A DNA stretch of 64,000 nt from Anaerolineae bacterium (GCA_034434235.1 DAOTZV010000192.1:5037-69036), one strand, 5' to 3'; positions 53,199-64,000 are shown, counted from the stretch's first letter. Program-made: numbers and translations. Notes: a model not told the origin generated them from the letters alone.

Positions 53199-54230
53199 AT
53201 GACAGTACCGATCTCCCCGGACAACGAGACGATCCTCGACATCGTCAACCTGAAGACCTACTTCTTCCTCGAAGGCGTCGTCGTCCGTGCGGTGGACGGC
53301 GTGGATCTCACCTTGCGGCGCAAGCAGACGCTGGGCCTCGTCGGGGAGAGCGGCTGCGGCAAGAGCATCACCGCGATGTCCATCATGCGGCTGATCCAGT
53401 CGCCGCCCGGCAAGATCGTGGACGGCAATATCTTCCTCTACTCGAAGCAGCGCAACGGGCAGGCGGTGGACCTGGTGACCCTCGATCCGCGCGGGGCCGA
53501 GATGCGCAGTATCCGCGGGGCCGAGATCGCCATGGTGTTTCAGGAGCCGATGACCTCGCTGAATCCGCTTTTCACGGTCGGCGCGCAGATCGCGGAGTCG
53601 GTGCAGATCCATCAGAAGGTGAGCCGCCGCGAGGCGATGGACCGGGCGCTGGAGATGCTCACCAAGGTGCAGATCAGCGCGCCCAAACAGCGCCTGCACG
53701 AGTATCCCCATCAGTTGAGCGGCGGCATGCGCCAGCGCGTGATGATCGCCCTGGCCCTCTCTTGTAACCCCTCGATCCTCATCGCCGACGAACCGACCAC
53801 CGCCCTGGATGTGACGGTGCAGGCGCAGATCCTCGACCTGATGCGGCAGTTGCAGGCCGACTTCGGCTCCTCGATCATCCTGATCACCCATAACCTGGGC
53901 GTGGTATCGCAACTGGCCGATCATGTCGCGGTCATGTACCTGGGCAAGATCGTCGAGTCGGCGCCGACGCGCGAGCTGTTTCATCATCCGCTTCATCCGT
54001 ACACGGTGGGCCTGCTCAATTCGGTGCCCGTGTTGGGGCGCAAGGGCAAGCAGGGGCTGGTGCCGATCCAGGGCATGGTGCCGCCGGCGAGCGTGGTGCT
54101 GCCGGGGTGTGCCTTTGCCCCGCGTTGCCCGCGCGTCATGCCGATCTGCACCGAAGAGCGGCCGCCGTTGCGGACGATCCAAGCGGATCATCAGGCCGCC
54201 TGCTGGCTCTATCGCGAACACGGCCTGTAG
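53199..54230 (+). CDS. ABC ATPase, OppD/DppD type
   Basis: [26 protein letters not shown] and C-terminal Cys motif. Confidence 0.95.
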
Positions 54231-54372
54231 CACGAAAGGAGGTGATGACGGGAGGAGGGAGTCGCTGTGCACGGCACGCATGGAGCACCCGCCATGCGTC
54301 GAAGATCAGGTTCAACTCGGGTTGGCCATCGGGTGAACCAACCGTTCTACACCAAGCAGAGGAGATGTCAGA

Positions 54373-56589
54373 ATGAATACCCGCACGAAGTTGTGGACGC
54401 TGGCCTCGGTATTGCTGGTGGTGATGCTGCTGGTGGGCTGCGGCGCACCGGCCACGCCCGCGCCGGCGCCTGCTCCTGCCAAGGCCGAGCCGACCGCGGC
54501 GCCGGCTCCCACCAAGGCGCCCGAACCGACCAAAGCCCCCGAACCGACCAAGGCGCCTGAGCCGACCAAAGCTCCGGCTGCGGCTGCCGTCAAGCCGCCC
54601 ATTCCGTATCCCGATCCGCCCAAGCTGGAGATCGGCGGCGCGCCCGTCAAGCGCATGCCCATCAACCAGATCGTGACGTACAAGGCGCTGCCGGAATACA
54701 AGGAACCGGCCTGGGTCACCGAGCTGGTGAAGGCCGGCAAGCTGCCGCCCGTGAAGGATCGCCTGCCGAAGGAGCCCCAGGTCTACCTGAAGTCGGGCAT
54801 GAAGGACGGCATCGGCGTCTACGGCGACCTGTGGCGCGGCTTCTCGGCCTGCCCGACGGCCGGCTATAACGACATGGCCGGCATCACGATGGGGTGGTTC
54901 GGCATCGAGTCTTACACCTCGCGCTACGGCGCGCTGGTCAAGACCGGTCCGCTCTACCGCGCGGATCAGGACATCGAGCCGTTCCCCAACATCGCCAAGA
55001 GCTGGGAGTGGTCGGCCGACGGCAAGCAGTTGACCATGAAGCTGATCGAAGGCGCCAAGTGGTCGGACGGCGAGCCGTTCACGGCCGATGATGTGATGTT
55101 CACCTGGGAAGGCTACATCGTTGACAAGAACGTCAACGCCCCGCGCAAGCTGGACGCCTGGACCTTCGGCGGGGTGCCGACCAAGCTGGAGAAGGTGGAC
55201 GACTACACCATCCGGTTCACGTTCGGCGTCTCCAAGCCGATGAACGTGTTCTACATGATGAACGAGGACACCTTCCACGTCATGCCGGCGCACCAGCTCA
55301 AGCCGCTCCATCCGCAGTGGAGCACCGCCAGCCCGAAGCCGACCTACAAGGACTTCGAGAACGCGCTGCCGCCGAACAAGCTGCCGCTGGTGACGATGGG
55401 CCCGTGGGTCATCACCGAGTACAAGACGGACGAGCTGATGATCATGCGCCGCAACCCGTACTACTGGAAGGTGGACGAGGAAGGCCAGCAGCTCCCGTAC
55501 TTCGATGAGATCCAGTACCGCAAGGGGCCCAGCGGCATCGGCCGCGACCTGTGCACCATCGCGGGCGACTGCGACCACATGAACCTGGAGAACCCGAGCA
55601 CCTTCGTCGAGGCGATGACCAAGGCGCAGGATCCGAACGCCAAGTACTCTGTGTCGTGGGGGCCTGAGACGTTGGGCTACGGCGTCATCTTCAACTTCTC
55701 GCTCGACCAGGGCGTGAAGGACGACCGCGACAAGGCCGTGCGCGAGCTGTTCCGCGACGTGCGCTTCCGCAAGGCGCTCAGCTACGCCACCGACCGCGAC
55801 GGCATCGCCCAGTCCATCATGAAGGGCCCGTTCCTGCGCGGGTGGGCGGGTGGCCTCTATCCGGGCGCGCCCGAGTTCGACAAGACCTCGGTGGTCTACT
55901 ATCCGTACGATCCGCCGTCGGCCAAGGCGTTGTTGGCCGAGATCGGCCTGAAGGACACCAACAACGACGGCGTGCTCGAATGGACGAGCGGCCCGATGGC
56001 CGGCAAGCCGGTGGTGCTGGAACTGCGCGCGTCGCAGGACGCCAAGGAGACCCAGAGCGTCGCCGAGGCGCTGGTGAACCAGTGGGGCGCGGTCGGCATC
56101 AAGATCAACATGAAGGTGACCGACAGCGCCACCTTCAACGAGCTCAACCAGTCGGGCAACTGGGACATGCAGGCGTTCCGCGGCGGCCAGCCGTTCGCGC
56201 TGCCGTTCGTCAACCCGACCGCCCTGGCGCCGCTCACCAAGAACTTCACCATCCATCGCGAGGGCGATAAGCCGCGCGTCATGATGGACTTCGAGAAGCA
56301 ACTGGTGGACCTGGTGACCCAGTACCGCGACACGTTCGACGCCGCGAAGCGCAAGGAGCTGATGAAGCAGTACAACAAGATCTTCACCGAGAACGTGTAT
56401 CAGCTCGGCGTCTTCGTCGGCCGCTACGGCCTGGGCCTGACCAAGCGCGCCAAGAACGTGCCGGACGGCACGCCGGTCTTCATGTACACCTGGGTGGAGG
56501 ACGCGATCCTGCTCGACGCGCTCTGGACGCCGCTGGATCAGCAGTTGAAGCAGAATCGGCCGAACACCCTGCCGGTGTATACGAAGTAA
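54373..56589 (+). CDS. Family 5 substrate-binding lipoprotein, AgpA-like (alpha-galactoside binding)
   Basis: LVGC lipobox; PTKAPE linker repeats; KLPPVKDRLPKEP...GIGVYGD, AKSWEWSADG and WSDGEPFTADDV. Confidence 0.88.
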   Translation: MNTRTKLWTLASVLLVVMLLVGCGAPATPAPAPAPAKAEPTAAPAPTKAPEPTKAPEPTKAPEPTKAPAAAAVKPPIPYPDPPKLEIGGAPVKRMPINQIVTYKALPEYKEPAWVTELVKAGKLPPVKDRLPKEPQVYLKSGMKDGIGVYGDLWRGFSACPTAGYNDMAGITMGWFGIESYTSRYGALVKTGPLYRADQDIEPFPNIAKSWEWSADGKQLTMKLIEGAKWSDGEPFTADDVMFTWEGYIVDKNVNAPRKLDAWTFGGVPTKLEKVDDYTIRFTFGVSKPMNVFYMMNEDTFHVMPAHQLKPLHPQWSTASPKPTYKDFENALPPNKLPLVTMGPWVITEYKTDELMIMRRNPYYWKVDEEGQQLPYFDEIQYRKGPSGIGRDLCTIAGDCDHMNLENPSTFVEAMTKAQDPNAKYSVSWGPETLGYGVIFNFSLDQGVKDDRDKAVRELFRDVRFRKALSYATDRDGIAQSIMKGPFLRGWAGGLYPGAPEFDKTSVVYYPYDPPSAKALLAEIGLKDTNNDGVLEWTSGPMAGKPVVLELRASQDAKETQSVAEALVNQWGAVGIKINMKVTDSATFNELNQSGNWDMQAFRGGQPFALPFVNPTALAPLTKNFTIHREGDKPRVMMDFEKQLVDLVTQYRDTFDAAKRKELMKQYNKIFTENVYQLGVFVGRYGLGLTKRAKNVPDGTPVFMYTWVEDAILLDALWTPLDQQLKQNRPNTLPVYTK

Positions 56590-63482: not shown

Positions 63483-63499
63483 GCCGTATCGGAGGGCAT

Positions 63500-64000
63500 A
63501 TGCAATATCGTTTCCTGGGCCGCACCGGCCTGAAAGTCAGCGAGCTGTGCCTGGGCACCATGACCTTCGGCCGCGAGGCCGACGAGGCGACCAGCTTCCA
63601 GATCATGGATCGCTTTGTCGCGGCCGGCGGCAATTTCCTCGACACCGCCAACGTCTATTCGCGCGGCCTTTCGGAGGAGATCATCGGCCGCTGGTTGAAG
63701 GGCAAACGTCGGGAGGACTTCGTGATTGCCACGAAGGTGCGCTGGCCGATGGGCGAAGGGCCGAACGACGTCGGCCTGAGCCGCAAGCACATCCTCGCCA
63801 GCGCGGAGGCAAGTCTGCGCCGGCTGGGCACTGACTACATTGACCTCTACCAGGTGCACGGATGGGACGGCTACACGCCGCTGGAAGAGACCCTCTCCGC
63901 GCTGGATGGCCTGGTGCGGGCGGGCAAGGTGCGCTATCTGGGCGCGAGCAACTACATGGCCTGGCAGCTCCAGAAGGCCGTTGACCTCAGCCGGCTTCAT
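63500..64000 (+). CDS. Aldo/keto reductase (3' end runs off window)
   Basis: Own translation: [24 protein letters not shown]...DTANVYS...ATKV...[16 protein letters not shown]. Confidence 0.93.

Follow-up and report, generated by a model that had tools for sequence, protein, structure and literature searches.

A predicted six-heme cytochrome conserved within a putative alpha-galactoside importer operon of Chloroflexota

Introduction

Cytochrome c552, ExtKL and cable bacteria's pentaheme cytochromes have been placed in one family, which is related to the archaeal cytochrome nanowires (PMC11976967), and one of its members, ExtKL (MccSep), is a tetrameric polysulfide reductase with a five-heme cap, an immunoglobulin (Ig)-like stem and a Cys/Sec pair at heme 2 (bioRxiv 10.1101/2025.11.18.688581). 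In a stretch of 64,000 nucleotides from an Anaerolineae bacterium (GCA_034434235.1, DAOTZV010000192.1:5037-69036; the whole stretch is hereafter called the window), a gene for a multiheme cytochrome that is predicted to belong to this family (58937-60742, + strand) lies between the genes of an ATP-binding cassette (ABC) importer resembling the Agp/Mel alpha-galactoside importer of Rhizobiaceae. In our view the cytochrome represents a variant, with six hemes, of an established cytochrome family, and the operon likewise a variant of an importer already described; the conserved arrangement suggests a link between sugar uptake and cell-surface redox chemistry, and a functional coupling of the two is put forward here as a hypothesis only.

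In anaerobic digesters, activated sludge, sediments and sponges, few filamentous bacteria are more abundant than Anaerolineae and Caldilineae, which are mainly known as sugar fermenters. General statements in the literature describe Anaerolineae as rich in multiheme cytochromes, and the multiheme cytochromes of Anaerolineae and Caldilineae are usually explained only generally, as extracellular electron transfer. In the literature searched, on cytochromes, Chloroflexi, ABC importers and glycan enzymes, we found neither the presence of a multiheme cytochrome in a sugar ABC operon nor its pairing with a BNR propeller described.

Results

The cytochrome and its place in the operon

The translated gene predicts an exported, lipid-anchored c-type cytochrome of 601 amino acids with six heme-attachment sites. 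The lipobox and the five CXXCH motifs named in the original prediction were all located: a signal peptide with the lipobox LVAC ends at Cys22 (58937-59002) and is followed by a Pro/Ala-rich tether, and the motifs are CGLCH (residues 160-164, 59414-59428), CATCH (residues 234-238, 59636-59650), CDFCH (residues 288-292, 59798-59812), CAPCH (residues 351-355, 59987-60001) and CQDCH (residues 395-399, 60119-60133), all on the + strand. Chance is excluded as their source by shuffling of the protein (more than one CXXCH in 0 of 20,000 shuffles), and no other open reading frame (ORF) of the window has two or more such motifs. A CX4CH site, CGWSGCH (residues 251-257, 59687-59707), which had been listed as possible, is carried by a 24-residue insertion (59663-59734) and is invariant in all 56 relatives of the clade embedded in ABC operons (clade A), and we therefore count it as a real sixth site. 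All residues of the heme motifs are invariant across the same 56 relatives, whose mean identity to the window protein is 57%. Apart from the lipobox Cys22 and the twelve cysteines in the heme motifs, the window protein contains no cysteine; in some homologs a signal anchor takes the place of the lipobox.

The cytochrome gene stands between oppC (57794-58930) and oppF (60747-61778), and the gene order and gene identities proposed at first, from lacI to an aldo/keto reductase gene with the cytochrome splitting the genes of the importer, hold. The stop codon TAG of oppC shares bases with a ribosome-binding site, TAGGAGG, and is followed after 6 bp by ATG 58937 or after 9 bp by ATG 58940, the likely start, while from the stop codon of the cytochrome to the start of oppF there are 4 bp (ATG 60747) or 13 bp (ATG 60756); the tightness of both junctions is as predicted, and the single values of 6 and 13 bp give way to these alternatives. 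No terminator-like hairpins were detected inside the intergenic gaps of the operon, every gene between 52180 and 64000 lies on the + strand, and the GC content of the cytochrome gene (0.64-0.71) is near that of the adjoining genes. From this layout we infer that the cytochrome gene is co-transcribed and translationally coupled with oppC and oppF. As the neighbors are sugar regulators (LacI here, a sugar-sensing kinase elsewhere), the cytochrome is probably made when the cell imports alpha-galactosides. An antisense ORF of 1,341 amino acids running across both permease genes and the cytochrome gene (56768-60793, - strand) was discarded as an artefact of high GC content.

Conservation of the arrangement in Chloroflexota

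Loci were collected by a scan of one genome per species, which gave 80 loci, and further loci were fetched by exact protein look-up; synteny was counted by tblastn with the window proteins and not from ORF calls, because a simple ORF caller errs in high-GC DNA. More than 2,000 relatives of the cytochrome are present in the protein database. Identity is 60% or higher throughout the best 120, which nearly all lack a name of their own, and the entries are called "hypothetical" or "carboxypeptidase regulatory-like domain-containing protein". The cytochrome adjoins ABC genes in 60 non-redundant loci of Anaerolineae, Aggregatilineales and Caldilineaceae, and carriers include the cultured Anaerolinea thermolimosa IMO-1 (L010; NZ_DF967965.1, 1785393-1807213) and a metagenome-assembled genome (MAG) labelled Litorilinea aerophila. 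The order oppC-cytochrome-oppF is found in 46 of these loci and is cut by a contig end in 6 more; another gene is inserted beside the cytochrome in 3, and the remaining ones have oppF-cytochrome-small protein (3 loci), small protein-cytochrome (1 locus) or oppC-cytochrome-other (1 locus). The position is shifted to after oppF in L033, L034 and L094 and to after the small protein in L037.

The surroundings of the cassette vary more. LacI serves as regulator in two orientations, co-directional (8 loci) and divergent (11 loci), and 8 loci have a sugar-binding hybrid kinase (Peripla_BP_4) with AraC output; the glycoside hydrolase family 4 (GH4) gene is present in 37 of 56 loci; all regulator and GH4 contexts are carbohydrate-related. 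The synteny check proposed at the outset, of the cytochrome family with ABC and GH4 loci, thus bore out the link to the ABC cassette (60 loci) and not a strict link to GH4.

Identity to the window copy, compared locus by locus, changes together in the cytochrome and its partners (Spearman rho 0.84 for OppB, 0.75 for OppC and 0.73 for the substrate-binding protein (SBP)), although the cytochrome evolves faster, with a mean identity of 57% where the membrane and ATPase parts have 70-78%. The trees of cytochrome and transporter, built by neighbor-joining without support values and compared by eye, have their main groupings in common. The ABC-clade cytochrome thus appears to have been mostly inherited together with the transporter, and the confinement of the ABC association to one cytochrome clade fits a single recruitment in the lineage leading to Anaerolineae and Caldilineae. 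Because identities run in parallel, the main tree groupings are shared and the heme motifs are invariant, a recent passenger insertion, one of the explanations first offered, is ruled out; the composition, which is like that of the neighbors, and the clade-specific sixth heme site point the same way, to an association that is old and mostly vertical. Random neighborhoods of the homologs, which the original prediction had named as a sign against itself, were not found: the arrangement is conserved in two Chloroflexota classes, and the neighborhoods of the remoter homologs are non-random.

Some loci carry additional genes within the cassette. In three Caldilineaceae loci (L045, 7768-9771; L056, 6873-8671; L059, 6697-8672) foreign-looking genes lie between transporter genes with undisrupted flanks (their types are Schlafen/AlbA_2 with HATPase_c_4, and a PT-TG pre-toxin domain protein), and in an Anaerolineae locus (L032, 8237-9838) a GH42/GH35-like protein with DUF5597 is encoded between oppC and the cytochrome.

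A sister clade paired with propellers

Cytochromes 41-46% identical to the window protein form one sister clade (clade B, 25 loci) and are not accompanied by ABC genes; they come from other Chloroflexota and from Acidobacteriota, Verrucomicrobiota, Phycisphaerae, Desulfobacterota (including Desulfamplus magnetovallimortis) and Eiseniibacteriota. Clade B is also present in Anaerolineae, where it and clade A are thus paralogs. Presence of the 24-residue insertion that holds the CX4CH site separates the clades completely (56 of 56 in clade A versus 0 of 25 in clade B).

Directly upstream of the cytochrome, 19 of the 25 clade B loci encode a secreted BNR/Sortilin-Vps10 propeller of 760-1280 amino acids, in which a 3-keto-disaccharide-hydrolase/LamG domain at the N terminus and a membrane anchor at the C terminus are frequent; among solved structures its best relatives are GH74 xyloglucanases, at only E 1e-13. 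Three more loci, obtained by exact look-up, have the propeller and cytochrome genes as a pair with overlapping stop and start codons, and in P0126, P0132 and an ORF of L055 (6956-11590) the cytochrome is part of a single polypeptide with the BNR propeller, the 3-keto-disaccharide-hydrolase/LamG domain and the CarboxypepD_reg domain, so that in the sister clade propeller and cytochrome would function as a unit. Among other relatives there are fusions with SLH cell-wall anchors, with a galactose-binding-like domain or with other propellers, and the neighbors of clade B include GH127, PL11 rhamnogalacturonan lyase, Pel9A-like and arabinofuranosidase-like proteins.

Four proteins (L072, L078, L081 and L083), all of the sister clade, have CXXCK in place of CXXCH at heme 1. 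CXXCK is the hallmark of the catalytic heme of the nitrite reductase NrfA, and these four may therefore be enzymes. At another sister-clade locus (L090, 12006-14598), the opposite strand carries a Rieske/cytochrome b/cytochrome c gene set some 2.3 kb downstream, a single case that may be coincidence.

Loci without the cytochrome or with the cytochrome elsewhere

Sampling from the transporter side, with a divergent SBP as query, returned only six loci, five of them informative, and the cytochrome is present in four of the five. The fifth (L093) has the order kinase, regulator, oppD, SBP, oppB, oppC, oppF, small protein and two GH4 genes, with a gap of only 72 bp between oppC and oppF and no cytochrome; the SBP of L093 was encountered on 17 contigs. 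When the tree is rooted with the rhizobial cassette, L093 nests among the carriers, which points to a clean secondary loss of the cytochrome. The cassette does without the cytochrome in rhizobia and in one nested Chloroflexi lineage, which makes the cytochrome an accessory and not an essential subunit.

The reverse case is found in a Caldilinea MAG (L044, 5934-13107), in which an ABC-clade cytochrome stands outside the transporter, between three GFO/IDH/MocA-type oxidoreductases (one of them GH109-like) and GH4. The neighbors of the cytochrome in L044 all use NAD-dependent sugar oxidation chemistry; the GFO/GH109-like proteins were considered as exported partners and rejected, since they have no signal peptides and are cytoplasmic.

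In most cassettes oppF is followed by a gene for a small protein with three transmembrane segments and a conserved f-H-x-x-Q-S motif (116 amino acids in the window, 61781-62131, + strand). Its first label, DUF4870-like, is weak: a distant likeness to DUF4870/MamF_MmsF stands, while the window copy has no Pfam match and the homologs score under the cutoff. The single conserved His, in the H-x-x-Q-S motif, rules out a b-type cytochrome. The small protein is kept in the cytochrome-less L093 (14595-14963) and is missing from several cytochrome-bearing loci, so it belongs to the ABC cassette and not to the cytochrome, of which it is thereby ruled out as a partner.

Fold and family of the cytochrome

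The lipid anchor and tether are followed by a CarboxypepD_reg/transthyretin-like Ig domain (residues 57-113, 59105-59275; PF13620, 36.1 bits), which matches the SusC NTE domain 9HFJ (TM-score 0.81 on target), and the chain ends in an Ig-like beta-sandwich stem (residues ~430-601, 60224-60739), listed with which are two motifs common to the cytochrome and c552, H426-x-M428-P-G and G-H467-x-x-P-T. The best match of the family profile in the PDB is the pentaheme c552 of Thermochromatium tepidum (5ZE8, E 7.4e-6), through the C-terminal half. Two AlphaFold models were made: the first, from 30 close homologs, was poor (predicted local distance difference test (pLDDT) 55), and the second, from a 66-sequence alignment of both clades, reached 70.6, with 80-98 in the stem, which matches 5ZE8, and below 50 in the heme cap including the sixth site, for which reason no heme geometry was read from it. 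In Foldseek the better model matched 5ZE8 along the whole chain (E 1.9e-12, 473 columns, TM-score 0.50 on target). With five CXXCH sites and an Ig-like stem of 5ZE8-like fold, and a cap modelled at low confidence, cap and stem are predicted to have the fold of c552 and ExtKL/MccSep, i.e., of the PHC family.

Membership in better characterized groups was considered and rejected. The ExtKL model NF040886 matches weakly (residues 339-574, 36.9 bits against a cutoff of 250), and as there is no cysteine to spare beyond the lipobox and the heme motifs, neither for the catalytic Sec/Cys position nor for a heme-ligating Cys, the window cytochrome is not a MccSep-type polysulfide reductase. The MtrC/OmcA models likewise score below their cutoffs (PF22113, 23.1 versus 30 bits; TIGR03507, 26.5 versus 209.3 bits), and the protein has six sites, not ten hemes in a staggered cross. 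An NrfA-type protein is ruled out by site 1, which is CGLCH and not CXXCK.

The importer and its rhizobial counterpart

The SBP (54373-56589, + strand; 738 amino acids, SBP_bac_5) is an AgpA/MelB-type lipoprotein with the lipobox LVGC and a Pro/Thr/Lys-rich tether (residues 24-78), and over residues 79-728 it gives a full-length match (E 3.6e-164) to Agrobacterium MelB (6EPY), annotated as "periplasmic alpha-galactoside-binding protein". It is 43% identical to its rhizobial ortholog, and the permeases OppB (56780-57775, + strand) and OppC are each 46% identical to theirs (AgpB-like in the case of OppB). The rhizobial plasmid locus has the order GH4, SBP, two permeases, fused ATPase and second GH4, and the proteins are colinear at 43-50% identity. 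The window thus has a full-length family-5 SBP, two Opp-type permeases, two oligo_HPY ATPase domains and an adjacent GH4 gene (62142-63482, + strand), the product of which, called melA from the start, scores 620.8 bits against a cutoff of 486 with the alpha-galactosidase model NF011657 (MelA-like, NAD+/Mn2+ type). The AgpA-type alpha-galactoside importer of the original prediction is borne out by the MelB match and by this colinearity, and we take the operon as a colinear ortholog of the rhizobial Agp/Mel importer, with its transport specificity predicted. Both lipoproteins, the cytochrome and the SBP, would hang by flexible tethers on the outer face of the cytoplasmic membrane. The SBP tether contains a near-perfect (PEPTKA) x4 repeat (54490-54580, residues ~40-70), and the tether of the cytochrome is comparably rich in Pro/Ala.

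Aligned with its rhizobial ortholog, OppC shows no clade-specific docking insertion (4 gap positions). In a search of 72,556 plasmids an SBP homolog was found on 1,461, whereas a close cytochrome homolog was found on none (there were only two remote matches, 24-25%), and the small membrane protein was absent from all of them.

Both ATPases, OppD (53199-54230, + strand) and OppF, carry a C-terminal C-x5-C-x6-C-x17-C motif, a putative [4Fe-4S] site (Cys 304/310/317/335 of OppD, 54100-54210; Cys 299/305/312/330 of OppF, 61641-61736). The same spacing is that of the [4Fe-4S] ligands of E. coli DppD and nearly that of DppF, and oxidation disassembles DppBCDF (PMC12136057), so the sugar importer of the window is probably redox-sensitive on its cytoplasmic side.

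The operon opens with the gene for a LacI-family sugar-responsive repressor (52180-53172, + strand; PF00356, PF00532, PF13377), 5' of which lies a sigma-70-like promoter, TTGACA-17 nt-TATAGT with a TG extension (52044-52072, + strand), recognized by consensus match only (11 of 12 positions) and a candidate for the promoter of the operon. Downstream of GH4 is the 5' part of an aldo/keto reductase gene (63500-64000, + strand; PF00248, E 5e-51), which continues past the end of the window. Divergent from lacI, a URO-D-like protein is encoded (50892-51974, - strand), a flank that is kept in related loci: genes of this uroporphyrinogen decarboxylase fold recur beside the sugar cassette in L005 (891-1967), L095 (5257-6345) and L017 (7092-8093), with 89% identity in L005-L008 and 34% in L095.

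Discussion

Our preferred reading, held tentatively, is that the cytochrome is a sugar-induced electron-transfer outlet at the cell surface. Electrons would be taken from membrane quinol-oxidizing machinery encoded elsewhere and relayed from heme to heme to an extracellular acceptor (for instance oxygen, a partner cell, a mineral, or humic or particulate organic matter), and the reducing equivalents of the imported sugar would thus be disposed of outside the cell. The sixth heme, which in sequence lies beside heme 2 (catalytic in MccSep), might turn an enzyme-like pentaheme core into a longer wire, and in the sister clade the cytochrome would have the same role, carried by a glycan-binding GH74-like propeller that is secreted, and deliver electrons to the particle under degradation. 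We favor an outlet because electron transfer is the commonest role of surface multiheme cytochromes, because the added heme resembles a wire extension and because the sister clade sits on glycan-binding scaffolds. Most characterized bacterial cell-surface multiheme cytochromes move electrons to extracellular acceptors, extracellular electron transfer serves some fermenters as a sink, and the fusions to SLH, galactose-binding-like domains and BNR propellers place other members of the family at the surface.

Several points weigh against an electron outlet. In the gene neighborhoods, no conserved quinol dehydrogenase, porin or other cytochrome adjoins either clade, clade A having as conserved neighbors only regulators, ABC parts, GH4 and the small protein, and clade B only the BNR propeller, so the sink has no visible donor. 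A general electron sink is not expected to be tied to the importer of one sugar, and lineages described as aerobic or phototrophic (Litorilinea aerophila, Caldilineaceae and Phototrophicaceae) also keep the cassette, where a fermentation sink would matter less. There are only five invariant candidate distal ligands (H175, H426, H467, M400 and M428) for six hemes, so one heme could have an open site, and the model confidence in the heme region is low. Finally, the PHC family includes a true enzyme (MccSep) as well as CXXCK variants, by analogy with which catalysis would be possible.

The cytochrome could be an extracytoplasmic redox enzyme or partner of glycan capture, a reading that we consider rather unlikely; its target would be the substrate or its aglycone, an oxidant or reductant that occurs alongside, or a partner protein. 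Both clades are paired with a carbohydrate-handling surface protein (the SBP and importer in one, the GH74-like propeller, overlapping or fused, in the other), the sister clade has glycan-degradation neighbors (GH127, PL11 RGI lyase, Pel9A-like and arabinofuranosidase-like), and in L044 the cytochrome stands between GH109-like/GFO oxidoreductases and GH4; extracellular enzymes are, besides, commonly encoded inside sugar-ABC operons. The window protein, however, is without the MccSep Cys/Sec pair, its motif at heme 1 is CXXCH rather than CXXCK, and the GFO/GH109-like proteins of L044 are without signal peptides. Rhizobia import and cleave alpha-galactosides without any cytochrome, and we know of no heme-c enzyme that acts on glycosides. 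No extracytoplasmic glycoside oxidase is conserved near the cytochrome, which weakens the initial suggestion of an acceptor for glycoside oxidation.

That the cytochrome has a function unrelated to sugar, having arrived early and being co-expressed harmlessly or conveniently, is unlikely, even though it was cleanly lost in L093, is relocated in L044 and shifted in L033, L034, L094 and L037, the same operon has received other inserted genes, and OppC has no clade-specific indel relative to the cytochrome-less rhizobial ortholog. A mere hitch-hiker would hardly hold its place in 46 of 60 loci amid changing flanks, regulators and GH4 content, nor keep tight junctions with a coupled ribosome-binding site, nor all heme sites invariant at a mean identity of 57%, and the sister clade is independently tied to glycan-handling proteins.

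We judge it very unlikely that the cytochrome is a redox sensor or gate that reports the extracellular redox state or a ligand (O2, NO, sulfide) and thereby modulates the importer or the SBP. The location of its gene between permease and ATPase genes favors stoichiometric co-expression, the two lipoproteins have similar tethers, and one heme may be without a conserved sixth ligand; importers of this class are redox-sensitive via the [4Fe-4S] clusters of their ATPases, and the motif is present in the ATPases of the window (PMC12136057). Against this, the permeases show no docking adaptation, six is a high number of hemes for a sensor, there is no transporter that the sister clade could gate, and the cytochrome has been lost while the cassette was kept. 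An extracellular reductase of Mn(III/IV) or Fe(III), providing Mn2+ for GH4 or iron for the Fe-S ATPases, is highly improbable: GH4 enzymes depend on Mn2+ and NAD+, the reduction of metal oxides by multiheme cytochromes is known, and GH4 is found in 37 of 56 loci and directly after the cytochrome in L044, but the cassette contains no conserved metal transporter, GH4 is missing from several loci and the sister clade shows no link to it.

Taking both clades together, it is possible, if on balance doubtful, that the family is a surface redox module dedicated to glycan foraging, with one clade in an importer operon and the other with GH74-like propellers. If so, several phyla (Chloroflexota, Planctomycetota, Acidobacteriota, Verrucomicrobiota and Desulfobacterota) would couple carbohydrate capture to an extracellular redox reaction, either the disposal of electrons onto the sugar-bearing particle or a partner, or the redox processing of the substrate. 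With one cytochrome clade at a fixed, sugar-regulated genomic address, with cultured carriers and with a natural loss variant, a coupling of sugar and redox chemistry becomes testable, and the c552/ExtKL pentaheme family gains a six-heme branch and a recurring link to carbohydrate-handling surface proteins.

Compared with known systems, the importer is closest to Agp/Mel and GH4 MelA of Rhizobiaceae, the SBP, the two permeases, the ATPase domains and GH4 each having a colinear ortholog there, whereas the rhizobial operons have fused ATPases and neither the cytochrome nor the small membrane protein. MtrC/OmcA of Shewanella and OcwA of Thermincola are likewise exported, surface-tethered multiheme proteins, and the faint Pfam and TIGRFAM matches are to this group, but their fold is different and the window gene has no porin or quinol dehydrogenase partner nearby. 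As to the enzymes that combine a propeller with heme (hydrazine synthase alpha, cd1 nitrite reductase and the quinohemoprotein dehydrogenases), relatives of the window cytochrome are fused to or paired with beta-propellers, and one of them (P0268) carries an HZS_alpha middle domain; the window protein itself has no propeller, and that of the sister clade is BNR/GH74-like with no known redox cofactor.

Within the PHC family, MccSep of Geobacter sulfurreducens (GSU2937-2936) has the same overall architecture as the window protein, which lacks its catalytic pair Cys239/Sec325 and any selenocysteine, and the gene contexts differ, ExtKL being encoded with a porin and a rhodanese and the window cytochrome with an ABC importer. 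With c552 and the other PHC proteins (ExtKL and the sPHC and lPHC of cable bacteria) it has in common the heme cap, the Ig-like stem and the H-x-M-P-G and H-x-x-P-T motifs. To c552 of T. tepidum the identity is about 20%, and relative to it the window protein adds the lipid anchor, the CarboxypepD_reg domain and the sixth site of CX4CH type.

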